Of a stretch of DNA of 64,000 nt, positions 16,486 through 50,321 are shown in pieces. Source of the stretch: an uncultured Candidatus Saccharibacteria bacterium (GTDB lineage: Bacteria > Patescibacteriota > Minisyncoccia > Phycocordibacterales > UBA918). The stretch covers positions 310,578-374,577 of the forward strand of contig CAYGKO010000001.1 of assembly GCA_964350735.1 (NCBI GenBank). The letters run 5' to 3'. Numbering within the stretch: the stretch's first letter is position 1; each line of letters starts with the position of its first letter. Both the position numbers and the translations under genes were made by a program. The notes beneath the pieces were generated by a model that saw nothing but the letters and a program-made list of their open reading frames with translations, was not told the origin of the DNA and searched no databases.

Positions 16486-16497
16486 CCCGTATAAAAT

Positions 16498-34881: not shown

Positions 34882-34885
34882 ATTT

Positions 34886-35644
34886 ATGGAAAAAAAAGAA
34901 ACTAAAATCACCCTCGGACTAATTGTCGGGTGGGTACTTGGAGTATTAGTAGGTATTGCTGGAGTGGGTCTGCTTTTCACCGAACCTATACCAGGAATAT
35001 TATTCATTCTGTTATCTTTGGTACTTTTACCTCCAGCTAATCGGATGATAAAAGAGAGATTTAATTTCTCACTCTCAGGCGGAGTAAAGGTAGTATTGGC
35101 AATCGTATTGTTTGTTATAGCTGGAGCGACTATGGATACTGAATCAGTTTCGGATGATAACCCTGTTGTTACTGACATACAGCAAGATACTCTTGAAGAA
35201 GTTGAAGCAAGTGATATGCCATCAAATGAAGTCGTCAGCGAGACTGAAGTAGCAGCGCAAGAACCTGTCTATATAGTGGATACACCAACTAACCAGCAAG
35301 CAGAAGAAAGTCCTGAAACTATTGTTGCGGCACCTGCGGTCGCCCAAGAACAGCCCACTCTGGGAGAAAGACAAGCTATCCGAGCAGCTCAAAACTATAT
35401 CGACTTTAAAGCCTTCTCAAGATCAGGTCTTGTTGAACAACTAGAATTTGAGGGATATTCAAGAACAGAAGCTGAATACGGTGTGTCGGGAATCACTGTC
35501 GATTGGAACGAGCAGGCTGCACTATCAGCTGCTAGCTACCTCGAATACACCAACTTCTCTCGTAGTGGTCTTATTGAACAGCTAGAATTTGAAGGATATA
35601 CGACAGCACAAGCTCAGTATGGAGCTACTGCTGTAGGGTATTAA
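34886..35644 (+). CDS. Ltp-like (host-cell-surface-exposed lipoprotein family) superinfection-exclusion-type membrane protein with two C-terminal Ltp repeats
   Basis: Two repeats: QAIRAAQNYIDFKAFSRSGLVEQLEFEGYSRTEAEYGV and QAALSAASYLEYTNFSRSGLIEQLEFEGYTTAQAQYG. N-terminal TM helices. Confidence 0.6.
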   Translation: MEKKETKITLGLIVGWVLGVLVGIAGVGLLFTEPIPGILFILLSLVLLPPANRMIKERFNFSLSGGVKVVLAIVLFVIAGATMDTESVSDDNPVVTDIQQDTLEEVEASDMPSNEVVSETEVAAQEPVYIVDTPTNQQAEESPETIVAAPAVAQEQPTLGERQAIRAAQNYIDFKAFSRSGLVEQLEFEGYSRTEAEYGVSGITVDWNEQAALSAASYLEYTNFSRSGLIEQLEFEGYTTAQAQYGATAVGY

Positions 35645-37248
35645 CATCTAGAGCTTTTTCGACTTTGTGGTGTATCTACGGTCTCAATCCGTTCTTTGGC
35701 TTCGGGAGTGAGACAATCAACATCTTGCAAGACATCGCGATAGTCGTGATACCAGCAGGTGTTGTCGTCCATTGATCCAGGCCCTAGAGACGCGATCAAG
35801 AAGGTACTTTCTTTAGTGAATTCTTCGACGATTTTGTGTATAAGGATTGAAAATGCGTCAGCTAGGTCGTCATGTTTTTCAACTCCAAAACCAATCATCT
35901 GCTCGATAAGATGTTCACAACCAGTATCAGGAAACAAGACAGTACCTTTTTGGATCATGGAAGACGTCAGAGCTAATCGAGTTCTTTTATCACTCTTTGG
36001 CTTAACTGATATCGCTCTCACTCCTTGTGAATCAAGCATCTGTGGCAGAGCGTCCTGGTATGCCACACTTTCCACAATTAGCTCGTCGGAACTACCATTC
36101 AAATGAATGTTGCTGTGCTGCTTCATCAGCTCTACTTGTTGTGGAAAGGTTAGTCGCTTGTTGATAAGATGAGGCTCGATAAAGATACGCAACGCTTCAT
36201 TGCGACCAAATATACGAGCGGTAACCATAGCAGTACAATCCGCGGTATCTTTTTGTGAGATAGCTAAATCAACGCCAGTGTATGTTGCTCGATACGCTTT
36301 ACTGGACCTCGGCGGCAGTTTGTCAGCATGGTAACAGCAGAGCCAGTCAGGATGAATAACCTGATCTTCATCTGGAATAATGTTGAGTAAGTATTCACGT
36401 TGCCACGCGATATCGTCACCAATTTTCTTTCGCTCCTTTTCAATAGAAGCCAGCGTTGGGAACTTTCCTGGCCAGGCTGATTTATTATCTTTAGTGATCA
36501 AGGCACAGGACATAAACGTGCCGTCTATTTCATTCTTTAAGGCTCGTTCTCGCAACCTCATAAGTAATGAGTCTTCATGAAGCAAGTTACCAACCACGAT
36601 CAAGCGGGTGTTTTGATCACCAGCCGGTATCACATCACCAGTGAGCCACTTGTGTGTTTTATTACGTCCCTCACGTGTTTTGGTGGAAGCTACATCTTCA
36701 ACGTCATCACAAATAAACAAGTCTGGTCGATGTTGATGGTGTCGCATCCCTCGGATACTTTGCTCTGACGAAGCAACAGTGATTCGAGCCTGAGTATTCG
36801 AGAACACAATCGAATGTGAACCCCATTCGTCTGAACTTTCACTAAATGGTCCAAGGTCATTTTTAAGCAACAAGTTATTCTCTAGCTCATTACGAATGTT
36901 CATCATATGTTGTTTGGCTTGTACTCGTGTCTGACAGAATATCACCACAAACTTCTTTTGTTGCTGACCAAGAATTGACCAGATAGGATAGGCGGTCGTA
37001 ATAATTGTTGATTTACCAGAGCCACGAAACGCCACAATGAATAGATTTTCATCAGGTTGATTTTCCACCTTTGCAATTAAATCTTTTTGGAAGGTAGCGG
37101 TTGGAAATAGAACGTAATGTGCGAAGTAGAAATGGAAGAAGTAGTTAAAACTACCCTGCATAACTTGTCGCCTGATCACCTTGTCTTTAGCAAGCGACTG
37201 GAACATCTCCTCAGGAATTGGATTTGGGTTATTGTTTTTCATCTTCAT
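35641..37248 (-). CDS. Phage terminase large subunit
   Basis: Walker A AFRGSGKST, with the ATPase then nuclease layout typical of TerL. Confidence 0.75.
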   Translation of the reverse strand: MKMKNNNPNPIPEEMFQSLAKDKVIRRQVMQGSFNYFFHFYFAHYVLFPTATFQKDLIAKVENQPDENLFIVAFRGSGKSTIITTAYPIWSILGQQQKKFVVIFCQTRVQAKQHMMNIRNELENNLLLKNDLGPFSESSDEWGSHSIVFSNTQARITVASSEQSIRGMRHHQHRPDLFICDDVEDVASTKTREGRNKTHKWLTGDVIPAGDQNTRLIVVGNLLHEDSLLMRLRERALKNEIDGTFMSCALITKDNKSAWPGKFPTLASIEKERKKIGDDIAWQREYLLNIIPDEDQVIHPDWLCCYHADKLPPRSSKAYRATYTGVDLAISQKDTADCTAMVTARIFGRNEALRIFIEPHLINKRLTFPQQVELMKQHSNIHLNGSSDELIVESVAYQDALPQMLDSQGVRAISVKPKSDKRTRLALTSSMIQKGTVLFPDTGCEHLIEQMIGFGVEKHDDLADAFSILIHKIVEEFTKESTFLIASLGPGSMDDNTCWYHDYRDVLQDVDCLTPEAKERIETVDTPQSRKSSRC

Positions 37249-37630
37249 GTTGTTTAGTTGGGATAATTTGTGCCATCTCTAATGCTTTACGGACAATTGC
37301 TTCTTGTTCAGGATTTAGCTCGTCAATGTCGTGCTTATTGGTTACTTCAAGCTTGTCTTTATAGGCTGGGTGTCGCTTGTTCAGCCAAAAGCGAACCGCA
37401 GAAAAGTTCTTTTCTTTAATGAGTTGCAGTAGTTGGTTTTCACTCATGTCGTTCACAAATGCCACACCGTCGGACAGGGCTTTGTCGAACTCTTTTTCAA
37501 AGTCTTTATCCTCTCGCTTCCAGCGGTAGACGGTATTGCGTGATACACCTGTCTTCTCACAAGCTACCTGCACAATTGGCACCTTCTTAAGCTCCTCCAG
37601 GAATTGCTTAGAGTATTTAGGCTTTTTCAT
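37229..37630 (-). CDS. Phage terminase small subunit-like HTH protein
   Basis: HTH (VACEKTGVSRNTVYRWK) directly upstream of and overlapping TerL. Confidence 0.45.
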   Translation of the reverse strand: MKKPKYSKQFLEELKKVPIVQVACEKTGVSRNTVYRWKREDKDFEKEFDKALSDGVAFVNDMSENQLLQLIKEKNFSAVRFWLNKRHPAYKDKLEVTNKHDIDELNPEQEAIVRKALEMAQIIPTKQHEDEKQ

Positions 37631-38900
37631 AGTAGTTTTTGATTACTTTAACTTTTTGATCAGTTAGTTTTTCATAACGCCTTCGCACCACTTCGCAAAA
37701 CACAGGGCTTTGTTCAATGGTATATACTCGTCGTCCAAGTGACTCAGCCGCAATCAAAGTACTACCTGAGCCAGCAAAGGAATCAAGAATAATGTCGCCT
37801 GGTTTGGTGCAACGTTTGATTGCTTTCTCGTGGAGTGACGGTGGTTTAGATGTTGGGTGCTCATACTCAGATGATTTCAATCTTTTAGCGCCCCATACGT
37901 TACTGAGGTCTTCAAGTAGTTGATTGCCAGTCCCAAGTTCTTTGTTTTGCACTTCGGTAGCATCCTGCGTCTGTTTGGATAGGTGCGGACTTCCTATGGT
38001 GCCGTATACACAAAATTCGATCACCTTGTTAAACGCAACCGTTGGTGTTGGTGATGCGTTATTCTTGAGCCAGACGTTCAGTCGACGGTTTTTAATACTG
38101 AGTTCGTTGTATAAGATTTGGAATACCCAGACCCAAGCCTCGTCGCACCAGTAGAAGAAGTGAGTGTCTTTCGTGGATACTGCAAGAGCTGCTTCAAGTG
38201 TCTGCTTGATAAAGGCTTTATATTGATCTGGTTTCTTGTCGTCATCAACCCTGCCACCATATGAGGCTTTGTTACCGACACCTTTGTCGTAGTCCAAATT
38301 TATGTTGTATGGTGGATCAGAGTATATGAAGCTAGTCTTATCTTGTCCGAATAATGCCTCAACTGCTTTACTGTCAGTACAATCGGAACAAAGCAATTTG
38401 TGCTTGCCAAGGATAAGCAAATCACCTGATTCGATATCTGTATCTTTGGCAGTTTCGACTGCTTTCTCTTCATCAAAGTCGTCATTTTCTGTACTTAGAT
38501 CCTCATCCCAAAATGAAGCTAGTTCAAGATCGTCAAAACCTGAGTCGGTGAGTAGACCGAGATCAAAGCTCTTTAAGGCTTCGAAATCCCAGTCACCGGT
38601 AACTTTGTTAGAGGTGATGAGATATTCTTCATATTCTTTTTTGGTGAGCTTGCGATTCGGCACGCGCACGTCAACCTCTTCATGACCACGGTCAAGGAGT
38701 TGCATCACTTTAAGACGTTGGTGCCCGGCTATCACTTTGTTGTCTGTATCAATCGCTGGGATCTCAACTAGATTAAACTTCTCCAGACTTTGCTTTAATT
38801 TTTTAAGTTGTATATCGCTCAGGGTACGAGGATTGCTCTCGTACGGGATTAAATCTTTGATGACACGGGTTTCGGTGTGCCAAGCTAGTTTTTTAGACAT
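37617..38900 (-). CDS. ParB-like nuclease domain fused to an N4/N6 DNA methyltransferase
   Basis: ParB N-terminal motif (GHQRL), SDPPYNI methyltransferase motif IV, and FAGSGST motif I. Confidence 0.8.
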   Translation of the reverse strand: MSKKLAWHTETRVIKDLIPYESNPRTLSDIQLKKLKQSLEKFNLVEIPAIDTDNKVIAGHQRLKVMQLLDRGHEEVDVRVPNRKLTKKEYEEYLITSNKVTGDWDFEALKSFDLGLLTDSGFDDLELASFWDEDLSTENDDFDEEKAVETAKDTDIESGDLLILGKHKLLCSDCTDSKAVEALFGQDKTSFIYSDPPYNINLDYDKGVGNKASYGGRVDDDKKPDQYKAFIKQTLEAALAVSTKDTHFFYWCDEAWVWVFQILYNELSIKNRRLNVWLKNNASPTPTVAFNKVIEFCVYGTIGSPHLSKQTQDATEVQNKELGTGNQLLEDLSNVWGAKRLKSSEYEHPTSKPPSLHEKAIKRCTKPGDIILDSFAGSGSTLIAAESLGRRVYTIEQSPVFCEVVRRRYEKLTDQKVKVIKNYYEKA

Positions 38901-39065: not shown

Positions 39066-39479
39066 TCAAGTTGTCTTCTCTTTGGCAAGTCGACGTAGTA
39101 GACGCTTGCCACTTTTGCTCGCGAGGAATTGTTGTGTATCAGGACCAAATTTTACCGGTACTCCTTCTTTTGGTATTTGTAGGACTACCTTGTATCCGTT
39201 CGATTGTTCTTGTTGCACATACTCAACGAACGACGGATCCTTTTGTAGGTTTTCTGCGAAGACTGACCAGTCCTTGCCAATATCTCCAGTCGTTGGAGAG
39301 TAGATACGTCCAGGTTCATCTTTACGAAATGCTTTTGCTACTTTACGACCGACAGATTTTAATGGTGGATGCTTAGTGGTATGAACCAGAAAATCAGTGA
39401 TCTCGATCACTTTATATTTCTGGCCATGCACTGGTTTGTGCGGCTTGAGTTGCAATTCTGTTACAAACTCTTCTGCCAT
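39066..39479 (-). CDS. Hypothetical protein
   Basis: 137-aa ORF with reasonable coding potential. No recognised motif. Confidence 0.35.
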   Translation of the reverse strand: MAEEFVTELQLKPHKPVHGQKYKVIEITDFLVHTTKHPPLKSVGRKVAKAFRKDEPGRIYSPTTGDIGKDWSVFAENLQKDPSFVEYVQQEQSNGYKVVLQIPKEGVPVKFGPDTQQFLASKSGKRLLRRLAKEKTT

Positions 39480-39703
39480 AACTACTTTCGCTTTCGGGTA
39501 CTTGGTCGCTGTGAAAGGGCACTACCAGCTGCAGTCTTTGATTTGCTTGAGGTACGTCCGTCACGGAGTACACTACTCGACGCTTTGGCGGCTCGTGAAC
39601 TCGTTACTTTGCTTCGGTTGCTTTTGGGCATGATGAAGTTTTTTAGTGGATAATGACTCTATTGTATTCCTGCATTTTGGAAGTGTCAAGAGTGTAAAAT
39701 AAG

Positions 39704-39753
39704 TTGACTAAATAGTGTGTAATTTAGGCTGAAATATGGTATAATAAGGGGGT
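39704..39753 (+). promoter_or_regulatory. Putative promoter with an extended -10 (TGgTATAAT) and a strong RBS for the LexA-like gene
   Basis: TTGACT at 39704-39709, TGGTATAAT at 39737-39745, AAGGGGG immediately before the ATG at 39754. Confidence 0.4.
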
Positions 39754-40398
39754 ATGCACGAACTACAATCAAAACTATACAACCTGGCCAAGCACGAAGA
39801 CCTCGGTAAATTGAGTCTTCGCCAGATAGCCAAGATGATCGGTGCGGATAATAAGCCTCAGATAGCAAAGCATCACCTACTACAACTCGATAAAATTGGT
39901 CTGTTACAGGTGAATCTTGATGAGGGTGTGGTGAAGCCTACAAAGCGTGGCTTTAACATGCCTGCCGCTAAACGTTTATTTTATTCTCTGCCAATTGTCG
40001 GCATGGCCAATTGTGGCCCCGCTAATGTTTTTGCTGAAGAGCGGATTGAGGGCTACCTCAAAGTGTCAGCGAAAATGCTACCGCACCGTAAGAGTGACTT
40101 ATTTGTTCTAGTGGCTGATGGTCCGTCGATGAATAAGGCTGAGGTGCGTGACGGAGTGACGATTGAAGATGGTGATTATGTAGTAGTCGATAGCGCAGAC
40201 AGAACCCCTACTAACGGAGATGTTGTTGTTGCGGTGATTGAGGGGCTAGCAACGATTAAACGGTACCGAAAAGATACTAAGAATAATCGAGTATTGCTTG
40301 AAGCAGATTCAACTGAAAAGTATCACCCGATTGTTATTGCTGAGGATGACGAGTTCGTAATTAGCGGAATAGTAGTAGATGTGATTAAGAAAAATTAG
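39754..40398 (+). CDS. LexA-like transcriptional repressor (winged-helix DNA-binding domain + S24 autopeptidase)
   Basis: The N-terminal HTH resembles the LexA DNA-binding domain. The C-terminal S24 domain has the Ser (GPSMNKA) and Lys (ATIKRY) dyad. Confidence 0.8.
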   Translation: MHELQSKLYNLAKHEDLGKLSLRQIAKMIGADNKPQIAKHHLLQLDKIGLLQVNLDEGVVKPTKRGFNMPAAKRLFYSLPIVGMANCGPANVFAEERIEGYLKVSAKMLPHRKSDLFVLVADGPSMNKAEVRDGVTIEDGDYVVVDSADRTPTNGDVVVAVIEGLATIKRYRKDTKNNRVLLEADSTEKYHPIVIAEDDEFVISGIVVDVIKKN

Positions 40399-40407
40399 AA
40401 CCGGAAT

Positions 40408-41403
40408 ATGAATGAAATAAATACTGCATTGGATAAATTACTTAAAGTGAATATAAATATCGGTCAAACAGCACGCTCACAAGGATCTATTAGTCATAAC
40501 TATATTCGCGATGTTTTAAAAGGTAAGAGCAGTACTAATCCACTCTTTCCACGTCTGGTGGATGGAGATTTTTTAAGTGGTTCGTATGCTCGAGGGACAA
40601 AGTTGAAGCCGCTTGATGACATTGACGTTATGGTGGTGATAGATGGTGCCGGATTACATGTCGTTAACAGTGGGTTGGTGCAAAACATTGGAGTTAGAGG
40701 ATCAGAGAAACACGATAATCCAATTTTGCAACACATTGGAGTTGATTCACTTCTAAGTTCTGCCAAAGTGATGTCACTTTTTCAAAAAGCGTTGAGTGAA
40801 ACCCACCCCAACTCAAAGATTCGCAATGATGAGCAGGCGGTAAACGTATGGTTAGAATCATATGGTCTTGGCATAGATGTTGTGCCATGTTTCCATCTTA
40901 TTCCACAAAGTGGCACGAGAGATTATTATTTTATTCCTGAAGGAAACGGCGGTACTGGCTGGAAGACAACAAATCCAAAAATTGATGAAGAGATATCAAG
41001 TACTCTTCACGAACGTCACGATAAAAAGCTAAAGAAAGTAATTCGTTTGGTTAAGTATTGGAACACTGTAAGTAATAACGGCAATCTCAAGTCGTATCAT
41101 ATTGAAACGCTTGCATGGCACATATTCGATAAGCGTACAGAAGTTATTCGTTCGCTAGAAGATGGATTGATAGCATTCTTTGTAGGTGCAGACGAGTTCC
41201 TTGCTATTGCGTGCGCTGACAAAACAGCTCTAGGAGGTCCGGTCGACCACTATCTTTCTGAAACTGCTCGCGCTAATTCTCGTCAGAAAGTTCGCGAAGT
41301 GTTTGGATTATTGTCTGATACGTATGTTACTCACGAGAATGACCCAGCCTTAAGAAAACGTGTCTGGCAAACGATATTTTCAAATAAACTTTCATTTGCA
41401 TGA
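40408..41403 (+). CDS. cGAS/DncV-like nucleotidyltransferase (CD-NTase / SMODS-type), candidate CBASS-like signal synthase
   Basis: Pol-beta NTase motif GSYARGTKLKPLDDIDVMVV (GS...DxD), a third acidic residue in GIDVVPCF, and a helical C-terminal domain with RLVKYWN. Confidence 0.6.
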   Translation: MNEINTALDKLLKVNINIGQTARSQGSISHNYIRDVLKGKSSTNPLFPRLVDGDFLSGSYARGTKLKPLDDIDVMVVIDGAGLHVVNSGLVQNIGVRGSEKHDNPILQHIGVDSLLSSAKVMSLFQKALSETHPNSKIRNDEQAVNVWLESYGLGIDVVPCFHLIPQSGTRDYYFIPEGNGGTGWKTTNPKIDEEISSTLHERHDKKLKKVIRLVKYWNTVSNNGNLKSYHIETLAWHIFDKRTEVIRSLEDGLIAFFVGADEFLAIACADKTALGGPVDHYLSETARANSRQKVREVFGLLSDTYVTHENDPALRKRVWQTIFSNKLSFA

Positions 41404-42248
41404 ATAATGATTTACTGAAAAAGGTGGTTGAATTGGAAAGTTTGGCCAAGCTTCTGTTTGATAAGGCAGTCTCTCTACGGTACTCAGCGTTGGGAATCGA
41501 GGTTCTGGCGGGGTTGCTAGCAGTCGCTATTGCCTTATTACAACCGTCTAAGACGGTGCTGTTTTGGTTTGCGGTAATTGGGTTCGTAATGCTGACTGTT
41601 TCGTATGTGCTGAAGGTATATTTCTCTATTATTTACGAACGGGCTGAAACCATGCGACGGCAAGCAGTACTGGCCAATGCTTTGGGTTGGGACATCCAGA
41701 AGGTTCAATTCAGTGAGTGGAGGCAATTAGCTGGAAAGAATCTCTTGAAGAAGTTAGAGAGTGCAACGCTTGACGAGGATTACTATGCAACAAAACAAGA
41801 ATCAGGCGCTTTACGATTACTTGAGATGACACAAGAATCAGCTTTTTGGACACGGCATCTATATAATAGTATCAAGACGTATCTATGGATAATTTTCGGT
41901 ATTGCGACCTTACTGTTCCTTACTGTTCTCACAGTAACATCCTCATACACACTCAACGGCAATCTTTCATTGCAAATTGCTTACGTTGTGTACCTACTAA
42001 TGCCGCTTATCTTAACTATTGATGTATTGGGTTGGGCAATCAAGCTACACATTGTCGCTGGTTCTATTAAAGAAATCGAATGTGACCTGGAACGACTAAA
42101 GGAAAATCATCAGGTGAATGAAGTTAACGTATTGAGACTGGTGTCAGAATACAACTGCCAAGTCATCCAGGGTTTCCCAGTCCCTAGCTGGTTTTTCAGC
42201 ATGCACCATGACCACACAGCTGTTCTTTGGAAAAAAAACAATGAGTAG
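41400..42248 (+). CDS. Multi-pass membrane protein translationally coupled to the NTase: candidate membrane-disrupting effector (SLATT-like)
   Basis: ATGA start/stop overlap with the NTase gene. Two pairs of TM helices separated by a soluble segment. No enzymatic motif. Confidence 0.45.
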   Translation: MNNDLLKKVVELESLAKLLFDKAVSLRYSALGIEVLAGLLAVAIALLQPSKTVLFWFAVIGFVMLTVSYVLKVYFSIIYERAETMRRQAVLANALGWDIQKVQFSEWRQLAGKNLLKKLESATLDEDYYATKQESGALRLLEMTQESAFWTRHLYNSIKTYLWIIFGIATLLFLTVLTVTSSYTLNGNLSLQIAYVVYLLMPLILTIDVLGWAIKLHIVAGSIKEIECDLERLKENHQVNEVNVLRLVSEYNCQVIQGFPVPSWFFSMHHDHTAVLWKKNNE

Positions 42249-42669
42249 CCCGTTTTCGATTGGTGAAATATGTGCAGTTATTTTTTCACAGACTTCGCAC
42301 ACTATTTATGCAACTGTATTAGAGTTGGTTATTTTTCTCTGGCCGTGGTATTGGCTCCTTATCGTACTTGGTCTTGGTGGTTGGATTGCTTTTGAAATTA
42401 CGACTAGAAACGGCACTATTCATCACAACTCAGAAAATGGTTTTTCACCAGTGTTTAATAGTTTTGTAGGGAGTTGTACATATACTGGATTACAAACATT
42501 TTTTTTCTTCATACTGACGTCGCTGTTTGGTTCAGGTGTCTATTGTTTCGTCTGGCCATTTGCAATACATATCTTGATATTTCTATCGACGGGTAAGTTA
42601 CTACACGTTATTGGATTTTGGCCGAGACTTGAGCGTCCAAACAATAGACGTCGGAATAGGAGGCGGTAA
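42241..42669 (+). CDS. Small membrane protein with an Arg-rich C-terminal tail, overlapping the preceding gene (ATGAGTAG)
   Basis: Two or three TM helices and a C-terminal RPNNRRRNRRR. The start is trimmed to the ATG at 42241, which overlaps the upstream stop. Confidence 0.4.
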   Translation: MSSPFSIGEICAVIFSQTSHTIYATVLELVIFLWPWYWLLIVLGLGGWIAFEITTRNGTIHHNSENGFSPVFNSFVGSCTYTGLQTFFFFILTSLFGSGVYCFVWPFAIHILIFLSTGKLLHVIGFWPRLERPNNRRRNRRR

Positions 42670-42731
42670 AAGTTACAGTTACATGTAACTTTAGATCTTT
42701 GATCTGTGTAACTTTTGTAACGTTTTCTTGC

Positions 42732-42830
42732 GCACGAGACACTATCGAATTGAATTCTGAATGTAAGCTAATCGGTCAAGCCCTGCTTGACCGACCACGG
42801 TTCTAGCTCGAGACAGCCCGCAGTTGACGA
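42732..42830 (+). repeat. Complex ~100-bp repeat (att-like), direct repeat of 49543-49690
   Basis: gcacgagacactatcg...ctga...gtaagctaatcggtcaagcc...cacggttct...ctcgagacagcccgcag shows about 80% identity to the 49543 copy. Confidence 0.6.
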
Positions 42831-44275
42831 ATTGAGGCATTTTTAGGGGTATTTGCGAGTACTTGATACTCGTCTTTAAACTGAAAGCTAGCCACATTTT
42901 CGTTCTCAATCGTAAGGTTCGAAAGCAACTTTTCTAGCAGTTTACGTTTAGATTCATCTTTTGCTTCGATGTACTCATTTGAGGCTGTATTTCCTTGTTT
43001 AAATACGTTTTTGATTTGTTCGAAAGTAGAATCTGAGAGTGGTCCTTTTTTATCAATTTCTTTGAGTTGATTTTTGAGAGCGGTGCGGTCGTTTTCGATT
43101 TGTTTCATCTTTTCCTCAAAGAGAGGTTTTTTAATAAGAAGTGATGTATATCCATCAACTAAGGTAGATTCTTTCGTGTCGAGCAATTTTAGCTCTTCTA
43201 GGATGCTTTCTCGTGCAGAGTCAGTGTAGGTGTCAGTTGAAGTGTTTTTCTGTCTGTAGGCTTCGGCAGAGAGCTTGATAGTTTCTTCATCAATATGAAG
43301 TTCTTCAAAGAGTTTTCCGATCAGTGCGTCCATTTTCTCGGACCGCAGATACTTGCGGGGAGCAGAGCAGATTTTCTTGCCGTTGGTGCAGTAATAGTAC
43401 TGATGTCCTTTCTTCGTATCTCCTGTATAGGTACAGCCACAGTTGGCACAAGTAACAAAGCCACGAGCAGAGTAGAAATGTTTTTCTTTCTTAGGGTGGT
43501 TCCGATTATTGAAGACGTTTTGAACCGACTCGTATAATTTACTGCTGACAATAGCTTTGTGTTTCCCTTGGTAGACAGTACCTCTAAATTCCATTAGTCC
43601 GGTGTAGAAGATTTGGTTGAGGATTTTGTGGATTTGAGATTTATACACCTTGTTACCAGCAGGGGTACGCATTCCCTCGTTGTACATAATGTCTACTAGG
43701 TCAGTGAGAGTGTACGCACCGGTAGCGTAGAGGTCGAAGATACGTTTTACATACTTGGCGCGTTTGGGTACGACTTTCACTAGTCTGTCTTCTTTGTCAT
43801 TACGATAGCCATAGGGAGCAATGTTCGGCCATTCTCCACGTTCTAGTTTTGCTCTATTGCCACGCTTCACGTTTACACTCAGATCACGGAGATATTGAGT
43901 AGCCATAGCTTGTTCAATACTCATGATGAGTACGTTGTCATGAGGAGAGTAGGTTTTCTCGAATGTTGTTATGCATTGAATATTGCCTTTTTGAAGTAGC
44001 CACTGAATTTGTCCTCCGTCTACTGGATTACGGGTGAGACGGTCGATTTTCCAGCAAAGAATAGCATCAGCTTCACCAGCTAGAATTTTAGTCATCATCT
44101 GATTGAAGACAGGGCGACCAGGAGCTTTGGCAGACATGCTCTCAGTCATGATTTCTACAATCTCAATACCCTGAGCTTCAGCGAGTCGTTTGAGTTCATT
44201 TTCTTGTGACTCTAAAGAGAGGACCTGTCTGTCTTCAGTATCAGTTGATTTTCGAGTGTAGAGAATATATTTCAT
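42803..44275 (-). CDS. Large serine recombinase
   Basis: YTRKSTDTEDRQVLSLESQ catalytic N-terminus, recombinase domain, and a Cys-rich zinc ribbon (CANCGC...YYYC). Confidence 0.85.
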   Translation of the reverse strand: MKYILYTRKSTDTEDRQVLSLESQENELKRLAEAQGIEIVEIMTESMSAKAPGRPVFNQMMTKILAGEADAILCWKIDRLTRNPVDGGQIQWLLQKGNIQCITTFEKTYSPHDNVLIMSIEQAMATQYLRDLSVNVKRGNRAKLERGEWPNIAPYGYRNDKEDRLVKVVPKRAKYVKRIFDLYATGAYTLTDLVDIMYNEGMRTPAGNKVYKSQIHKILNQIFYTGLMEFRGTVYQGKHKAIVSSKLYESVQNVFNNRNHPKKEKHFYSARGFVTCANCGCTYTGDTKKGHQYYYCTNGKKICSAPRKYLRSEKMDALIGKLFEELHIDEETIKLSAEAYRQKNTSTDTYTDSARESILEELKLLDTKESTLVDGYTSLLIKKPLFEEKMKQIENDRTALKNQLKEIDKKGPLSDSTFEQIKNVFKQGNTASNEYIEAKDESKRKLLEKLLSNLTIENENVASFQFKDEYQVLANTPKNASIRQLRAVSS

Positions 44276-44357
44276 AACTGAATGTTTATCTGATAATACG
44301 TCTTATTTCTTCATTCTTCAAATATGACTAATTAGTCAAGGGACTGGGTCGCTTGGG

Positions 44358-45158
44358 CTACGCCCACGCGCGACCCCAGTCCTCAAATAAGTCATCATCA
44401 TATGTTGTACCTTTGATAGCTTCGATGAGCTTTTTTGCATCGGTGAAGTACATGTATTCACCGGGAAGTACATACACATATGGATTCATGTTTTTGACAC
44501 GTTTCTTACTCATACCAGATTTATTCCATTGACGTAGTCGTGCTTTTTGCCAGCGACGAAAGATTCGGAAGTTGCGTCTAATAATCTTGATGTCTTCTTT
44601 TGTTCCGACAATGATAGCGATGTTTCTGTGTAGAAGTGATCGACTATAGCCCCAGAACTGACCACAATCGTGATAAAAGTAGGGAACGGTCTTTTGAGCT
44701 TCTTTGGTTAAATACGAAGCGAGATAGCGCTTGAAGGCTTCGGTCTTACGAATAGGAGATATATGCGCTCCGTGTTCACGATGGCGTTTGTCTTTTGATC
44801 CTACGATCTCATACCACATTCGTTTAAGTTCATCTTCGTTGATTTCTTTATCGGCAAGAATATGGAAGTGACACGCACCTCGTTCTTGAAATTCCATGAA
44901 CCAAAACCAGCGGATACCTCTGTAGTTAAAACGGAGCATCATCTTGTGCAGATGGGACTTTACGATTTTTCCATCCTTTGGGAATTTTCGAGGATATGTG
45001 AGCCCGATTTCGTGCGTCATCTCGTCTGGTAAATTCCTCAGAATATGGCGTGCGCGCTTGATCGAACCGTACGAAAGCCTTTTGATTTGGCCCCTTTCTT
45101 TCCGATTCTGGTCGGTTAATAAATTCTTCGACTGATTGTTCTTGTTTCTTTTTTCCAT
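44358..45158 (-). CDS. Rolling-circle replication initiator (HUH endonuclease, phiX gpA-like double-Tyr type). The start is uncertain, with an internal ATG near 45020.
   Basis: HUH motif ACHFHIL and motif 3 YLASYLTK, which resembles phiX174 gpA YVAKYVNK. Confidence 0.55.
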   Translation of the reverse strand: MEKRNKNNQSKNLLTDQNRKERGQIKRLSYGSIKRARHILRNLPDEMTHEIGLTYPRKFPKDGKIVKSHLHKMMLRFNYRGIRWFWFMEFQERGACHFHILADKEINEDELKRMWYEIVGSKDKRHREHGAHISPIRKTEAFKRYLASYLTKEAQKTVPYFYHDCGQFWGYSRSLLHRNIAIIVGTKEDIKIIRRNFRIFRRWQKARLRQWNKSGMSKKRVKNMNPYVYVLPGEYMYFTDAKKLIEAIKGTTYDDDLFEDWGRAWA

Positions 45159-45553
45159 AAGGTATTTGTGTGCAAGGTCCTATCTTCAAATCGAATGGCC
45201 ACATCTCAATTTTTAAGGTCTCGTCTTTATGCCAACGAGGCCCTTGGATTAAGGGGTGCAATATGTCGATTGGTTTTAGCTTCCCAGCGTCAGCTAAGAA
45301 GTATCGGACTTGCTTCATTTTTTATTTTGTACGAGCTCACTGAACACTTCGTAGAAGTCAGCTAGAGCGTTTAGGTGCTCGATAGCTGTTTCATCACTAA
45401 TTTCCTCACCGTGTCTGATGAGTACATATAGCTTCATGCGTTTGATAAGCTCGTGGTTAAAACTCATAACCTACGCATTGTCGAGTCGCCATGTGTCGGA
45501 AAAGGAGTACAATGGAATAGTGATGGCTAAAAACCTCGCTATCTTTACAGAGT

Positions 45554-46459
45554 ATGAAAACTTTTAAGACTAAAAAACCCTCATTCTTCAAGAAAGGAAC
45601 GCTGGTTTTTTCTGACTCTGGTCATAAGCTAGTGAGAGACGGCAAATATTACAGGTGCTCTAAAAACACAAACGGAGAGTGCGATCTGCATAAACCAATA
45701 TCGCTAGAAGCGTTCGAGACAAAATTCTCTCGCTTAGCTACTAAGCTTTACTCTGAACGATTGGACTTTGATTCAATTTTCAAAAATCTCTTTCGCGACC
45801 ATTTCTGGGATATCGTTTTTGGTATAGATGAACGCCTGCTGGGGAAAGAGGAAGTGGCGGATTCTACTATCGAACTGCTAAAGAAGGATGCAGGAAATGG
45901 TAAGAAACCGTCTCGATCGTTAGTAAAGGATTTTGAAGAGAACTACATAGAATCACTTAAAGCTGATTATCCGGTAATGTTGCTGGGTTATGCAGTAGGC
46001 ATGGTGCGTGTTTGTTCTATCGAACAAAAGAAATCTGAAATGGGGAGAAGCTTAGCTCATTTCTCTAAAAAGATTTATATCGGAAATGATGGAGAGATTG
46101 AGGTTATAGAATTAGAGCGTTGGGCTTGGTACGTATTTAATGCCGTGATCAAGAAAGCTTATCCTGAGTATCTCAATGAACGAGAGGATTTAAAATTTAT
46201 GAATGAAGAAGACGTTCTGCATACGATGAGTATCACAAAAGCATGCGAAGCGTTTGGTGAAACTGAATTCAATGATGCTCTTGGTGAAAATTTCATTGCT
46301 TGTATAGGCTGGATTAAATTCCTCAAGGAATCTTTCACAGGAATGTTTGATGACGGTCAGGAGGGTGAAATGAACTCCCAGTTTCCGGAACTGATAGAAA
46401 AAATGCAGAATGACCCAGCGCTAGGGATTATGATGAGAGTTAGTGCTATAACAAAATAA
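45554..46459 (+). CDS. Hypothetical protein; first gene of a coupled pair
   Basis: 301-aa ORF. Its stop is 3 nt before the next ATG. Confidence 0.4.
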   Translation: MKTFKTKKPSFFKKGTLVFSDSGHKLVRDGKYYRCSKNTNGECDLHKPISLEAFETKFSRLATKLYSERLDFDSIFKNLFRDHFWDIVFGIDERLLGKEEVADSTIELLKKDAGNGKKPSRSLVKDFEENYIESLKADYPVMLLGYAVGMVRVCSIEQKKSEMGRSLAHFSKKIYIGNDGEIEVIELERWAWYVFNAVIKKAYPEYLNEREDLKFMNEEDVLHTMSITKACEAFGETEFNDALGENFIACIGWIKFLKESFTGMFDDGQEGEMNSQFPELIEKMQNDPALGIMMRVSAITK

Positions 46460-46461
46460 TT

Positions 46462-47577
46462 ATGAAAATTGATAGACAGTTAGTAGAGAACTACAATGAA
46501 CTTGATTGGGAAAGACTTCTTAGAGCAGATCTGGGTAACGCTGGTCAATTGAGCGCAGCTAAACCTTATTTCGACAGAATTAAGAATACTTTTGACTCGA
46601 TTTTAAATAATCCAATTACAGATAGTCTTTCAGATGATGCTAATCAAAGAGTTGAAGTGGAGCTAAATAACTTCATAACTTTTTTGCAAAGTGAAATTGT
46701 GAATTTCTCAGATGTCTCATTGAGAAAACAAAAGCTTACAGCGGTACAAAATAAAGAGTGGCAGATAATAACTAACTTAAATGCTGTCATTTCATACCTG
46801 GTTCTTAATGAGGAAAAAGTGAATATTAAAGACACTGAACTATTACTAGAGAATGCAAAGAAGGAATTAGATTTGGAAAGAGCAAAGTCAAAGTCCCAAA
46901 ACGAAAATATAGCAAGCACTTTCGATAAGTTATCCGAGTCTATAAAACTGGCTGATTCATTAGAGAGTAAATCAGGTGTTATAAAAACTGCAATCATTAG
47001 AGCAGAAGAATGGATAAGTAAAAATGAAGATGCTGTTCAACTCATTTTAAAAAGTAACGCTACAGATTCTGCTAAAAAAGCTGAAGAACATAAAACCTTT
47101 AAGTTTGAATGGGTGAGTATTTGGCTTTTTAAGCACATTCCATACTTACAAAAAATAAAGCAACCTGCAGTTGAAGGTACATTCTTTTGGATTTTGTCCG
47201 CTATTATCTCTGGAACTTTTGTAATGTCTATTATAGGTTTTTTTGTTTATCTTGATTATTTAGGTCGTGAAATTAATGTAGCTAGTGTTCTGTTGAGGTT
47301 ATCAGCAGTCTTAATACCTGCTTACTTTACATTCTTCAGTGCTCAACAATATTTAAGCCATCGAAGGTTATATGAAGCATATAGATTCAGAGACGTAACC
47401 CTGCAAACAATGATTAGTTTGAGAGACCAAAGTCCAGACGATACGTTGGCAAAAGAGCACATTCTTAAAAAAGCTGTTGAGGTAATGTTCGCTGAGCCAA
47501 AAATGAGCGGGGAAGTTAAGTACGACAAGCAGGTTGTGTCTCAATTGTTGGACTTGGCTAGGAACAGATTAGGTTAA
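46462..47577 (+). CDS. Hypothetical coiled-coil protein with two C-terminal TM helices; second gene of the pair
   Basis: About 230 aa of coiled coil, then TM helices GTFFWILSAIISGTFVMSIIGFFVYL and LLRLSAVLIPAYFTFFSA, followed by a conserved-looking Y/R helix. Confidence 0.4.
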   Translation: MKIDRQLVENYNELDWERLLRADLGNAGQLSAAKPYFDRIKNTFDSILNNPITDSLSDDANQRVEVELNNFITFLQSEIVNFSDVSLRKQKLTAVQNKEWQIITNLNAVISYLVLNEEKVNIKDTELLLENAKKELDLERAKSKSQNENIASTFDKLSESIKLADSLESKSGVIKTAIIRAEEWISKNEDAVQLILKSNATDSAKKAEEHKTFKFEWVSIWLFKHIPYLQKIKQPAVEGTFFWILSAIISGTFVMSIIGFFVYLDYLGREINVASVLLRLSAVLIPAYFTFFSAQQYLSHRRLYEAYRFRDVTLQTMISLRDQSPDDTLAKEHILKKAVEVMFAEPKMSGEVKYDKQVVSQLLDLARNRLG

Positions 47578-47695
47578 AATATTTCTAACCCCAGCATGCA
47601 CTTAGGGTTGACATTTGCTTGTATAAGTGTTTCTCTTCTATAGAATCGCTCTTTAAAGAGCACCTTACAACACAAAAAATACAGAGGAGGCAGAC

Positions 47696-48787
47696 ATGGA
47701 TCTGACCAAAATCAACGAAATCTTGGCCGCAGAAAGCAAAGCGTTCAAAGAAGGTGTCCAGGACGCTATCGACGCAGCAATTGATCGACGGAAGGATATG
47801 AAGTCTGAAGTCGCAACAATCCTTGGTCTCGACAGCGGCACTACTCTCACAGAGGAAAGCTTCTTCGCAATCCTCGATGGATTTACAGAGATCTCTGGCA
47901 ATCTCGATTCTGTCTTGCAGCAAGCTGGCTTCGACTCAAAGGTCGCAGGCGCTTGGCTTCGTAAAGAAGACCCTCCCAAGGAGGGGTTTCGTGGGCCAAC
48001 GCTTCGTATGTTGGCGGAGGTAGTCTTTGACTACTACGCCGACAACCGTCTTTATCATGACCTGCATCAGGTCTTGGAAGACTGGGGTGACCCTGAGGTA
48101 CTCGCAGCAGCGGCTCATAAGACCCTACCTCTCGATTCTGCACTGGAAGAACTCGGTGTGTTTGATGATGTTAGGGCGCTTGACCAGGGCACAAGAATCC
48201 GTAACTGCATTAAGAATGAAGGTCTTATCACTCTTGGCGAATTGCTGAGTCGTGCGGAAATCGAGTGGCGGCGTGTGCCAAACTTTGGGAACAAGAGTCT
48301 GAGAACCTTAGAGGCTTATCTTAAGGACCGTTTTGGTACTGGATTCATAGACCTCGAAAATCCAGACCCTGACTTAGAACGTTTCCAGAGTATGTCATGG
48401 GAGAGACTGAGCCTTAAAGCGGCTGCGGGTAAACTTTTAGTTACGCAATGGCATGAGAGTGAGAAGAAGCCAGAATACGCTGACCTTGATTACCATGCGT
48501 TTCAGCCCGTATTGCGCGAAAAGGGGCCTGAAGAGGTTTATGTGCAAATTTATGCTGACCATGACTTGATGGAGGCTCTCAAAGAGGCAGGCATTCTGCA
48601 CTGCACTCAGTTAGCAACAGCTCCGCAAAAGGTACTTGATCAAATCTGTCATGGTCAAACTGAATGGCAAGAACAACTTCCGAAGCTCTTAGACTGTGAT
48701 CGTTCCAGTCACTATTATAGGTCTTTGTCGCTGGGAATGGGAACTCCTCTGTTTCTCGACCCAGAGGTTGAAGTATATACCTCATAA
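47696..48787 (+). CDS. Protein with an RNA polymerase alpha-subunit C-terminal-domain-like (helix-hairpin-helix) module; higher GC than its neighbours
   Basis: TRIRNCIKNEGLITLGELLSRAEIEWRRVPNFGNKSLRTLEAYL matches the alpha-CTD pattern (RSxNCLKxxGIxTxGDL...PNxGKKSL). Codon GC is visibly higher than in flanking genes. Confidence 0.5.
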   Translation: MDLTKINEILAAESKAFKEGVQDAIDAAIDRRKDMKSEVATILGLDSGTTLTEESFFAILDGFTEISGNLDSVLQQAGFDSKVAGAWLRKEDPPKEGFRGPTLRMLAEVVFDYYADNRLYHDLHQVLEDWGDPEVLAAAAHKTLPLDSALEELGVFDDVRALDQGTRIRNCIKNEGLITLGELLSRAEIEWRRVPNFGNKSLRTLEAYLKDRFGTGFIDLENPDPDLERFQSMSWERLSLKAAAGKLLVTQWHESEKKPEYADLDYHAFQPVLREKGPEEVYVQIYADHDLMEALKEAGILHCTQLATAPQKVLDQICHGQTEWQEQLPKLLDCDRSSHYYRSLSLGMGTPLFLDPEVEVYTS

Positions 48788-48795
48788 GAAGCTTT

Positions 48796-48829
48796 GGGCC
48801 GTGCGATGATAATCGCGCGGCTCTTTTTC
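48796..48829 (+). terminator. Rho-independent terminator
   Basis: gggccgtgcgatgataatcgcgcggctc + tttttc. A second hairpin, cacgcccgcaagggcgtttttg, lies at 48889-48909. Confidence 0.6.
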
Positions 48830-48916
48830 TTGGTTTATTATCTCAAGAATAGTTCGGATTTCGTCCCACACTGCCCGCACAGACAATCACGCCCGCAAGG
48901 GCGTTTTTGTATGTGC

Positions 48917-49026
48917 GGAGAGTAAAGTAACAGTCCGGGGGACTGTTACGTGGGATTCGAAAAGGTTGCCTGATATTTTCGCCAGAAAATATCGACAACC
49001 TATACTGCTCGTGTAGCGAGAGAAAT
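48917..49026 (+). repeat. Structured repeat unit, copy 2. It begins GGAGAGT and is immediately followed by the duplicated tRNA 3' end.
   Basis: Same conserved blocks as 16527-16650. The middle hairpin (gatattttcgccagaaaatatc within ggttg...caacc) differs in sequence from copy 1 but keeps the structure. Confidence 0.6.
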
Positions 49027-49068
49027 TCCCTTACTCTCCGCCGTTTAGAGCTAGCACGAGACATTATG
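49027..49068 (+). repeat. attR-like direct repeat: duplicated tRNA 3' end plus the cacgagacattat core, followed by a terminator hairpin
   Basis: tcccttactctccgccgtttagagctagcacgagacattat. The hairpin agcacgagacattatgtttcgtgct + ggtttt lies at 49054-49084. Confidence 0.65.
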
Positions 49069-49097
49069 TTTCGTGCTGGTTTTGGTATAATTGCATT

Positions 49098-49541
49098 ATG
49101 GATTGGATCAGTGTCGTACAAAGTCTACTCGTCGCAGTCGTTACTGCTATTGTTGTGTCATTAATTAACCACTACTTAACAACGGCTCAGCGCAAGAAAA
49201 ACGAGATTCGAGAAATGAAACGTAAAGCATATTCTGAATTGTTAGACAGTTCCAGAGCGTTTTTGGATGATCCAAATCTAAGTAAAGATGAAAGGAGAGC
49301 TATAAAAAAGAAATTTTTAGAAAAATACTACAATGAAATTATCCTATTTGCCGATACTGATGTTCAGAATGGAATCGAGGATTTTGTAAAAACTGGGGGA
49401 GTGTCTTCAACAAATCCTGGTTCACAAGTTTCAAAACTTAAGAATATGATTATCTCTATAAGAAAAGATTTGGAATTTGAAGATTCAGTTTCAGAAGACT
49501 TTAAAATGTATTCTCTTGATATAGGTGAAGAAAGAGATTAG
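49098..49541 (+). CDS. Hypothetical protein with an N-terminal TM helix (single-gene cassette)
   Basis: 147-aa ORF bounded by core-motif repeats on both sides. Confidence 0.4.
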   Translation: MDWISVVQSLLVAVVTAIVVSLINHYLTTAQRKKNEIREMKRKAYSELLDSSRAFLDDPNLSKDERRAIKKKFLEKYYNEIILFADTDVQNGIEDFVKTGGVSSTNPGSQVSKLKNMIISIRKDLEFEDSVSEDFKMYSLDIGEERD

Positions 49542-49542
49542 C

Positions 49543-50302: not shown

Positions 50303-50321
50303 TTCTGAAGTTGTTAAAACA

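Follow-up and report, generated by a model that had tools for sequence, protein, structure and literature searches.

What a LexA-like repressor gene does directly in front of a set of antiphage genes is the question raised by a locus on contig CAYGKO010000001.1, of which a stretch of 64,000 nucleotides (64 kb, hereafter the window) was analysed. An open reading frame (ORF) scan of the window confirmed four genes on the same strand, at the positions collected in Table 1. They encode a putative LexA-family repressor with a probable winged helix-turn-helix (wHTH) and an S24 autopeptidase domain (hereafter S24), a cyclase of a system of antiphage signalling through cyclic oligonucleotides (CBASS), which is a cGAS/DncV-like nucleotidyltransferase (CD-NTase), a CBASS membrane effector with four transmembrane (TM) segments (hereafter 4TM), and a smaller multi-TM protein (hereafter TM3). 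These identifications come from profile and structure matches far beyond chance. The first-pass annotation of this DNA had placed a putative pair of suicide effectors under DNA-damage control by S24. We consider instead that S24 is probably the LexA-family repressor of a mobile element, co-transcribed with an exchangeable immune cassette in the manner of the lambda cI-rexAB genes. The locus would be the rightward operon of this element, which is compact (~9.5 kb) and seems to be integrated in a Patescibacteria-like host.

The four genes are tightly packed. A gap of 9 nt separates S24 from the cyclase gene, the cyclase and 4TM genes overlap by 4 nt (ATGA, 41400-41403), and the 4TM and TM3 genes overlap by 8 nt (ATGAGTAG, 42241-42248), both overlaps being as first annotated. 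The mechanical ORF of TM3 begins at 42208 and its 142-aa form at 42241, the latter start being used by homologues and by the gene calls on the metagenome contig L049, which carries an identical locus. Between the start codons of S24 and the cyclase, neither a strong promoter nor a terminator-like site was predicted, and the sole promoter match there is weak (9/12) and lies within the S24 gene. Since the gap is only 9 nt and no promoter of the cargo is recognisable, an obligatory co-transcription of S24 and CBASS is implied.

Backbone genes and exchangeable cargo

To the left of S24, the element holds a large serine recombinase (integrase 1), the large and small terminase subunits (TerL and TerS), a fusion of ParB and a DNA methyltransferase (ParB-methylase), the 137-aa protein p137, and a 49-aa ORF. 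The neighbourhoods of nine S24 homologues were looked up, one of which (L147/L148) repeats another (L146); homologous loci are given here by such L numbers. Four of them keep the element genes on the left of S24 and carry different immune genes behind it. In L137 (S24 80% identical), a serine recombinase, TerL, TerS, and ParB-methylase stand opposite a type II CBASS of SAVED-HNH, cyclase, and E2 genes. In L138 (75%), TerL, TerS, ParB-methylase, p137, and the 49-aa ORF are followed across S24 by an unrelated cyclase and a 2TM effector, and a distant serine recombinase lies downstream of this cargo. L152 (71%) has a serine recombinase, TerL, TerS, and ParB-methylase on the left and genes for a 69-aa protein, ThsB_TIR, and a 198-aa protein on the right, while L143 (70%) combines a serine recombinase, a split TerL, TerS, ParB-methylase, and the 49-aa ORF with a cyclase and a Cap15-like effector. 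TerS is 45-78% and ParB-methylase 56-66% identical to the window proteins in these four loci, and no homologue of the window cyclase or 4TM was detectable in any of them. Loci with a cyclase and 4TM at 45-69% identity, on the other hand, have an S24 that is only 39-45% identical. Since the identity of S24 follows the backbone genes and not the cyclase or 4TM, S24 is a backbone gene and CBASS is cargo.

In the remaining loci, S24 has other company. The homologues of L146 (64%), L140 (69%), and L145 (62%) have no element genes on the left, and that of L149 (68%) has only a recombinase fragment; behind S24 follow a KAP NTPase in L146, a methylase and two unknown genes in L140, genes including a PDC-M36A-like candidate in L149, and a housekeeping-type flavoprotein in L145. 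The genes behind S24 are thus swapped among at least five immune systems. The idea that S24 is specific to the window CBASS is not borne out by this distribution, as S24 co-varies with the backbone, stands before other cargos, and also occurs with neither CBASS nor an element nearby. In L146/L147 (8654-11452) the S24 homologue is followed by a 932-aa KAP NTPase that is QatA/PifA-like, in L149 (9178-10641) the PDC-M36A-like candidate comes after two small ORFs, and in L140 (8670-10586) the homologue precedes the methylase and the two unknown genes. The pattern of S24 followed by defence cargo may reach beyond the element.

The other end of the cargo is marked by TM3. In L137, a TM3 copy of 79% identity follows the E2 gene of the different, type II CBASS, so that S24 (80%) and TM3 (79%) enclose an entirely different cargo. 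In DNA alignments, homology breaks off at the S24 stop codon and sets in again ~10 nt before the TM3 ATG, and in both elements the last cargo ORF stops inside the TM3 start (ATGAGTAG in the window, ATGA in L137). From these sequence comparisons, the interval between S24 and TM3 is an exchangeable cargo slot, filled in the window by a type I CBASS. TM3 belongs to a small family (seven clusters in a word-seeded homologue search) and matches nothing in Pfam, PADLOC, PHROG, or NCBIfam. A further homologue, in L150, follows AAA_13/helicase genes in a recombinase/ParB-methylase element that lacks CBASS, and in L052 TM3 lies on the opposite strand. TM3 was considered as a second CBASS effector and rejected on this distribution. 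Of its first description, the presence of a 142-aa TM protein, the Arg-rich tail, and the overlap stand, but its role as an effector does not: it is a backbone gene that flanks the slot.

The view from the cyclase is complementary. Among 31 evaluable loci of the cyclase clade, S24 is upstream and 4TM present in 12, S24 occurs with another effector in 3, 4TM occurs without S24 in 4, and neither is found in 12; the cyclase-4TM pair is kept in 16 loci. Where loci with neither were inspected, the cyclase is followed by a ~165-aa protein that looks SLATT-like with two TM segments by eye. In L008, L009, and L081, a same-clade cyclase and an effector of this kind lie directly downstream of two very large ORFs, one of ~836-851 aa and the other of 618-810 aa, which at their N-termini look, again by eye, like subunits of type I restriction-modification systems; these seem to be ordinary defence islands without S24. 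A separate observation concerns the gap between S24 and the cyclase, which is ~250 nt long in L001, L084, L063, L068, L003, and L052 and encodes an ORF of ~80 aa that has no counterpart in the window. The copy of L052 matches Pfam DUF2188, and the others (MANYHV...GGGEVRIHG...DSDT) are similar by eye; this ORF may be an accessory or regulatory partner of the window's cyclase clade. In the closest relative of the window CBASS (L050/L051, 69% identity), the ParB-methylase is fragmented, as is the terminase of L051, and S24, cyclase, and 4TM are intact, which suggests that the immune operon is retained while the element decays.

The element genes themselves are conserved between loci. Integrase 1 is 64-74% identical in L137, L143, and L152, and TerL is syntenic in L001, L003, L050, L063, L090, L138, and L143. 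In Pfam, TerS matches HTH_Tnp_1_2 (2.4e-06, 28.1 bits against a cut-off of 27.9) and, below the cut-off, Sf6_terminase (0.0012). p137 is kept in L138 (65%), L003 (47%), and L001 (38%). The 49-aa ORF, which falls below the 50-aa limit of the ORF list, is 71-82% identical in L138/L139 and L143 and could be a Cro-, excisionase-, or antirepressor-like factor. With the serine integrase, TerL, TerS, and ParB-methylase in the same element as the operon, the location of the locus on a mobile element, as first annotated, is supported. Neither capsid, portal, nor tail genes were recognised by Pfam or PHROG in 33263-42669, and for this reason the element has the appearance of either a stripped-down prophage or a phage satellite. 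An Ltp-like lipoprotein, encoded between the integrase and TerL, would be a second candidate antiphage function on the element.

Table 1. Positions of the genes and predicted sites of the element and of its right-hand neighbour in the window.
Feature	Position	Strand	Length	Description and matches
Large serine recombinase (integrase 1)	33263..34555	-		Left end of element; Pfam Resolvase/Recombinase/Zn_ribbon_recom; PHROG integrase 1.1e-60
Ltp-like lipoprotein	34886..35644	+		Annotated superinfection exclusion; PHROG superinfection exclusion 7.7e-34; Pfam Lipoprotein_Ltp 1.6e-24
TerL, terminase large subunit	35641..37248	-		Last of leftward operon; PHROG_38 5.2e-72
TerS-like HTH protein	37229..37630	-		PHROG terminase small subunit 3.1e-10
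ParB-N6/N4 DNA methyltransferase fusion	37617..38900	-		Pfam N6_N4_Mtase 1.2e-29; PHROG DNA methyltransferase 1.4e-82, ParB-like 6e-25
p137	39066..39479	-	137 aa	Backbone protein; no Pfam, PHROG, or NCBIfam match
49-aa ORF	39482..39631	-	49 aa	First of leftward operon; very basic, Ser/Thr-rich; sequence MPKSNRSKVTSSRAAKASSSVLRDGRTSSKSKTAAGSALSQRPSTRKRK
Leftward promoter (predicted, strong, sigma70-type)	39661..39689	-		TTGACA-17-TACAAT; 11/12 consensus positions
Operator-like motif	39684..39709	not assigned		TGTCAA-GAGTGTAAAATAAG-TTGACT; GTGTMAA twice in direct orientation, TTKACA once inverted
S24 promoter (predicted)	39714..39745	+		Third AGTGTGTAA repeat over -35 position; 17-nt spacer; extended -10 TGGTATAAT
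S24	39754-40398	+	214 aa	LexA-family S24 autopeptidase repressor with probable wHTH; left conserved flank of cargo slot
CD-NTase (CBASS cyclase)	40408-41403	+	331 aa	CdnD-like
4TM	41400-42248	+	282 aa	CBASS 4TM membrane effector
TM3	42241-42669	+	142 aa	Multi-TM protein with Arg-rich tail; backbone gene, right conserved flank of slot
Terminator-like, palindrome-rich region	42670-42730	+		After operon; from sequence and RNA fold
Second small integrated element	42730..49615			Serine recombinase 2, rolling-circle Rep, plus-strand genes without assignment; bracketed by direct repeat
Serine recombinase 2	42803-44275	-		Pfam Resolvase
Rolling-circle Rep	44358-45158	-		Pfam REP_ORF2-G2P; PHROG rolling-circle replication initiation

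The cyclase, 4TM, and S24 proteins

The cyclase matches the PADLOC cyclase model PDLC00802 over its full length (1.9e-54) and Pfam SMODS (1.6e-14), and scores 134.7 bits against NCBIfam CBASS_cyclase_b, below the equivalog cut-off of 200 bits. An AlphaFold (AF2) model built from an alignment of 37 sequences has a mean predicted local distance difference test score (pLDDT) of 94.6. In a Foldseek search of the PDB with this model, the best match is Pseudomonas aeruginosa CdnD (6p8u/6p82, 6.9e-16), followed by Escherichia coli CdnC, human cGAS, and other CdnD structures, and the sequence-only PDB search agrees (P. aeruginosa CdnD best, 1.7e-14). Identity to the solved CdnD structures is ~21-23%. 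Columns G58, S59, D71, D73, D157, K216, and W218 are invariant in 37 homologues, so the active-site pattern GS...[DE]xD...D is complete (G58 S59, D71xD73, D157), and the motifs on which the gene was first recognised (GSYARGTKLKPLDDIDVMVV, GIDVVPCF, and RLVKYWN) are present in the translation and fall on invariant columns. The profile search and structure prediction that the first-pass annotation had called for therefore identify the product of 40408 as a CBASS CD-NTase. A nucleotidyltransferase of the MNT/AbiEii antitoxin type or of the polymerase-beta housekeeping type was considered and excluded, since the CBASS cyclase profiles and the CdnD/CdnC/cGAS-like model match strongly; NTP_transf_2 reached only 0.0016, below its cut-off. 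More than 100 clusters of cyclase homologues were found, and where the records give a lineage, they are mostly Patescibacteria. CBASS is therefore not exceptional in this group, and the host is not the unusual one it had been taken for. Among the viral contigs of IMG/VR, only four distant cyclase loci and two S24 loci were found.

The 282-aa protein was first described as having two TM hairpins, no known sensor domain, and no clear class. Hydropathy gives four TM segments in two hairpins (~29-47, 53-71, 162-180, and 196-214), and Pfam, PADLOC, and PDB searches found no SAVED, STING, or Cap15 beta-barrel sensor in this or the 142-aa protein. The protein is not unclassifiable, however, but a full-length member of a catalogued class: residues 12-280 match positions 12-275 of the 287 of the PADLOC CBASS effector model "4TM" (PDLC00724, 2.7e-25). 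This match and the ATGA overlap agree with the earlier coupling of the cyclase to a membrane effector. The family comprises 693 clusters at E<=1e-3 among 1.84 billion protein representatives, most of those listed being ~270-300 aa long. In an alignment of 15 members, the soluble parts hold the conserved motifs AETMRRQ (R87), DxxYYAT (Y128), LLEMTQESAFWTRHLY (E146, S147, W150, and H153), and SEYNCQV (E250 and Y251), as well as W277. These polar and aromatic residues outside the membrane segments are likely a ligand-sensing surface, as judged from their conservation, and they are concrete targets for mutagenesis. The PDB sequence search found no solved relative of 4TM or of TM3, GenBank phages gave no match to 4TM, and no published ligand site of the 4TM family came to light. 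A role of the TM proteins as transporters was rejected, Pfam and NCBIfam giving no transporter family match. Neither E1/E2/JAB proteins (Cap2/Cap3), HORMA, nor TRIP13 were found by Pfam or PADLOC among the operon genes or the neighbours scanned. Its sequence relationships place the core in type I CBASS, probably in the known group that pairs CdnD with 4TM, to which the window CBASS adds a new member. The S-4TM class is reportedly due to Burroughs and colleagues (2015), and the classification of CBASS to Millman and colleagues (2020).

S24 contains a complete Pfam Peptidase_S24 domain (1.5e-20), and its residues 24-212 align to E. coli LexA in the PDB search (3.9e-10). The N-terminal part (residues 24-70) aligns to the LexA N-domain in this match, and Pfam LexA_DNA_bind gave no match at E<=0.1. 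Against the NCBIfam lexA model TIGR00498, S24 covers 27-201 of 203 positions and scores 83.3 bits, below the cut-off of 110.95. The cleavage loop A-N-C87-G88-P, Ser125 (in GPSM), and Lys169 (in TIKR) are invariant in 29 homologues. S24 thus looks LexA-like and fit for autocleavage by its sequence, and it does not pass the LexA equivalog test; its first reading as a complete LexA-type wHTH-S24 autopeptidase is supported overall, the LexA-type wHTH being a probable part of it. At E<=1e-8 there are 925 homologues, of which the best 120 have identities of 61-82%; GenBank phages gave only distant matches (29-36%), to S24, LexA, and UmuD. Pfam at E<=0.1 found no metallopeptidase, WYL domain, or kinase on S24, no search being made for a separate partner gene.

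The control region and competing explanations

How S24 acts depends on the region between it and the 49-aa ORF. The predicted leftward promoter (TTGACA at 39689-39684, a 17-nt spacer, and TACAAT at 39666-39661) is the best site in 38800-43000 and lies ~23 nt upstream of the 49-aa ORF, and L137, L138, and L143 have similar -35/-10 pairs in this position, as read by eye. Comparison of the S24 upstream regions across loci revealed a composite motif, TGT[CA]AA-N14-TT[GT]AC, which occurs at a fixed distance of ~70 nt upstream of the S24 ATG in eight of ten close loci (L152 included), where 0.02 are expected per window. Its copy at 39684-39709 is the only exact match in the 64 kb; a second operator-like site was found neither upstream of the cyclase nor at any other place in the window. 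The -35 of the leftward promoter falls on the left half of the motif. A LexA-box-like palindrome, the search for which had been proposed earlier, did not turn up: an inverted-repeat search of 39480-39800 for a classical SOS box gave direct repeats only, and the composite motif of direct and inverted half-sites was found instead.

S24 has its own predicted promoter, as was first proposed, with an extended -10 (TGGTATAAT) at 39737-39745 and the ATG 8 nt downstream. The TTGACT at 39704 belongs to the operator-like motif and is not a normally spaced -35, since it lies 30 nt upstream of the extended -10. Most loci have a TTGCAA-like S24 -35, whereas the window has a third GTGTGTAA repeat there. After a 17-nt spacer comes a TATAAT-like -10, only 6-8 nt before the S24 ATG in all close loci read, and a leaderless S24 mRNA is therefore predicted. 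This promoter geometry favours repression of the leftward packaging operon, and repression of the S24-CBASS transcript seems less likely, although the third repeat over the window S24 -35 could add negative autoregulation.

We suggest that S24 would serve as the element's own self-cleaving LexA-family repressor at a bidirectional control region. The leftward promoter, with the operator-like motif over its -35, would drive the 49-aa ORF, p137, ParB-methylase, TerS, and TerL, and S24 would be read rightward from a predicted leaderless mRNA. In the quiescent element, the repressor transcript would also provide basal CBASS. An infecting phage would switch on the cyclase, and its putative cyclic oligonucleotide product would activate 4TM, leading to membrane damage and abortive infection, which would protect the clonal host population together with the element. 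After DNA damage, S24 would be cut between Cys87 and Gly88 in a reaction stimulated by RecA, which would free the leftward packaging operon from repression, and CBASS expression may then change as well.

Several points weigh against this proposal. Promoters, operator, and leaderless start are predicted at the level of consensus sequences, and promoter-like sites in the region are not above chance (6 found, 8.6 expected). In the window, AAGGGGG lies between the -10 and the S24 ATG and could be the Shine-Dalgarno sequence of a longer transcript. S24 is inverted relative to CBASS in L003, L052, and L077, and in L003 and L052, which have the packaging genes, it is co-directional with them; because of this inversion, the picture of a repressor divergent from a lytic operon fails for the family as a whole. 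The S24 homologues of 62-69% identity in L140, L145, L146, and L149 stand without a detected backbone, except for the recombinase fragment upstream in L149, and S24 could ultimately be a host gene. The 4TM mechanism is drawn from family membership, since the single-sequence structure model (pLDDT 56) was unusable. The missing capsid match may reflect failure of hidden Markov models (HMMs) on divergent phage proteins of the candidate phyla radiation (CPR), as several element ORFs are unmatched.

The explanation of the first-pass annotation, in which S24 is a dedicated SOS-responsive regulator of CBASS, appears rather unlikely to us. S24 would then be the functional analogue of CapH+CapP in a single polypeptide and would keep its own operon repressed; when DNA is damaged or a phage attacks, RecA* would trigger its autocleavage and so boost the cyclase and effector. 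The gene is directly upstream of the cyclase in 15 of the 31 evaluable clade loci, even the inverted copies (L003, L052, and L077) share an intergenic region with CBASS, and four different CBASS types lie behind close S24 homologues; however, the other 16 evaluable cyclase loci lack S24, and the same S24 family stands before TIR, KAP NTPase, and methylase genes and, in L145, before a housekeeping-type flavoprotein. The invariant cleavage site and catalytic dyad fit such a regulator, and DNA-damage control of CBASS is established for CapW, CapH/CapP, and CapK/CapS, but what S24 co-varies with is the integrase, terminase, and methylase, not CBASS. The third GTGTGTAA repeat over the window S24 -35 could give LexA-style negative autoregulation, though it was not seen there in the other loci read by eye, and the conserved motif lies, in window coordinates, upstream of the S24 -35 and over the leftward promoter. 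This motif overlaps the leftward promoter, whereas the core of the S24/CBASS promoter lies outside it, and for this reason a wiring in which DNA damage releases otherwise repressed suicide effectors is not favoured; nor, with S24 tracking the backbone, is an effector pair under dedicated DNA-damage control.

S24 might also be the host's chromosomal lexA, a hotspot on either side of which integrases and defence cassettes insert, its link to CBASS being incidental read-through. Its homologues of 62-69% identity in L140, L145, and L146 without element genes are what this explanation expects, as is the divergent neighbour in L145, an AlkB-like 2-oxoglutarate/Fe(II) (2OG-Fe(II)) oxygenase and thus a typical DNA-damage gene; the full-length similarity to LexA and the 925 homologues, suggestive of a widespread conserved gene, point the same way. 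For a host gene beside independent insertions, however, it is unexpected that the identity of S24 goes up and down together with that of the backbone genes to its left, and the implied obligatory co-transcription, the solitary operator-like site, and the score below the lexA equivalog cut-off likewise argue against it, so that we consider a host lexA quite improbable. That the locus is a decaying prophage remnant whose CBASS and S24 are no longer expressed or functional is, in our estimate, very improbable. The element has no recognised structural phage genes, its closest relative L050/L051 has fragmented methylase genes and in L051 a fragmented terminase, and a second element has inserted right behind the operon. 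Yet the backbone and cargo ORFs of the window are all full length with invariant catalytic residues, and the compact gene set is intact again in L137, L138, and L152, and also in L143 apart from its split TerL; such recurrence indicates a selected architecture and not random decay. A mobile-element repressor that shares its transcript with exchangeable immune cargo accounts best, in our judgement, for these loci.

Surroundings of the operon and relation to known systems

The TM3 stop codon is directly followed by a larger imperfect palindrome, inside which lies a perfect one of 12 bp (GTTACATGTAAC, 42678-42689) with a T run behind it. The RNA fold of this region (-14.2 kcal/mol, z = -1.7) is a weak terminator signal, and the palindrome could be a weak terminator or an attachment (att)-type site of a recombinase; an Rfam search of 39000-50500 gave no match. 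Behind the S24-CBASS-TM3 operon, a second element of ~6.9 kb is enclosed by a 75-nt imperfect direct repeat of 75% identity (42730-42804 and 49541-49615), which holds a hairpin (TCGGTCAAGC-CCT-GCTTGACCGA). A 363-aa protein of this element (47696-48787, plus strand) has a segment that resembles the C-terminal domain of the RNA polymerase alpha subunit (Pfam, 1.8e-09). Further right are the host-like Vut_1 and RecQ genes, and left of integrase 1, beyond 33.2 kb, are host-like metal-handling genes (multicopper oxidase and cation efflux). Elsewhere in the window, two tRNA-Ser genes of 89 nt (16400-16488 and 16871-16959) are separated by ~380 nt, and one of them has the anticodon ACT, which is unusual; a tRNA-Ile (anticodon TAT) lies at 9616-9689.

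The window CBASS itself, being a type I cyclase-4TM pair of a catalogued kind, adds little to what is known. Like the EcCdnD12-4TM type, it consists of two overlapping genes, the cyclase and then the effector, without Cap2/Cap3 or HORMA, the cyclase and 4TM profiles are matched over their full length, and the nearest solved structures are CdnD. It differs in the distance of its cyclase from solved CdnD proteins (~21-23% identity; 134.7 against 200 bits at the CBASS_cyclase cut-off), and in its place in Patescibacteria, within a repressor-led operon on a mobile element. In E. coli, phages were restricted 10,000-fold or more by the E. coli CdnD12-4TM operon (bioRxiv 10.1101/2023.05.21.541620).

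As a repressor, S24 shares with LexA and LexA-like S24 proteins the alignment to E. coli LexA and the conserved (A/C)-G scissile site, Ser, and Lys, and its operator-like motif adjoins its own promoter, as in LexA. It differs from LexA in scoring below the equivalog threshold and in its Cys-Gly cleavage site, which is that of UmuD. The motif, too, is unlike that of LexA in mixing direct and inverted half-sites at an unusual spacing and in having no other site in the 64 kb.

The arrangement of the operon is closer to that of prophages. In lambda, the defence genes rexA and rexB are co-transcribed with the prophage repressor gene cI. As in this case and in prophage hotspots, a repressor gene forms one flank of the window slot, and unrelated immune systems are swapped between the conserved flanks of syntenic elements; the predicted leaderless repressor mRNA and the divergent lytic-type promoter recall lambda PRM and PR. 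The window repressor differs from the lambda one in being LexA-like (probable wHTH and S24) and not CI-like, and in its Patescibacteria host. Defence hotspots of prophages and satellites were described by Rousset et al. 2022 (PMC9122126). Compared with prophage hotspots, the window element is small (~9.5 kb), has TerL and TerS but no recognised capsid genes, and has a last cargo ORF whose end lies within the start of the conserved gene downstream. Phage satellites such as phage-inducible chromosomal islands (PICI) and P4-like elements (PMC10085698, PMC9122126) resemble it in their size of ~10 kb, an integrase, a repressor, packaging-related genes, immune cargo, and the lack of recognised structural genes. 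Unlike them, the window element has both TerL and TerS together with ParB-methylase, and its satellite status is read from absence, no helper phage, replication module, or satellite family marker having been identified.

A literature search of partial coverage, and so not proof of novelty, brought up neither a paper that links LexA or S24 to CBASS nor one on this family of elements in Patescibacteria, a group that was mentioned together with CBASS only in passing. Patescibacteria (CPR) are often called poor in classical defences, and here a recurrent compact element delivers interchangeable abortive-infection systems behind one LexA-like gene. It is possible, although we offer this tentatively, that S24 and TM3 are the fixed ends of a plug-and-play immune slot on undescribed, satellite-like integrative elements of ~10 kb in Patescibacteria, with a terminase but no capsid gene recognised by HMM, which exchange CBASS of types I and II, TIR, and perhaps further systems in this slot, and that one SOS-type switch would couple immune expression to element mobilisation in these ultra-small episymbionts. 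For uncultivated lineages, the element family would provide a handle on new defence genes and possibly on phage satellites.

The remaining relatives are the DNA-damage-responsive immune regulators CapH+CapP, CapW (WYL), and CapK+CapS (bioRxiv 10.1101/2022.04.27.489752; PMC9122588; PMC13373217), papers that do not discuss LexA or S24. They share with the window locus a DNA-binding repressor directly upstream of immune operons of various kinds, together with a proteolytic or damage-sensing route of inactivation, through which immune expression could respond to DNA damage. In contrast to CapH/CapP, an HTH repressor with a separate Zn-metallopeptidase, the window repressor and its serine autopeptidase are one polypeptide, Pfam giving no metallopeptidase match in the locus, and S24 is co-directional and first in its operon, whereas CapH/CapP of E. 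coli MS115-1 lie on the opposite strand. S24 also differs from the wHTH-WYL-WCX architecture of CapW/BrxR, having no WYL match in Pfam, and, unlike all three systems, it tracks a mobile-element backbone. The wiring is a variant on known themes, namely repressor-linked prophage defence, defence hotspots, and damage-responsive immune regulators. Should S24 govern the packaging operon as well as the immune cassette, it would represent a fourth, mechanistically simpler route from DNA damage to immunity after CapW, CapH/CapP, and CapK/CapS.

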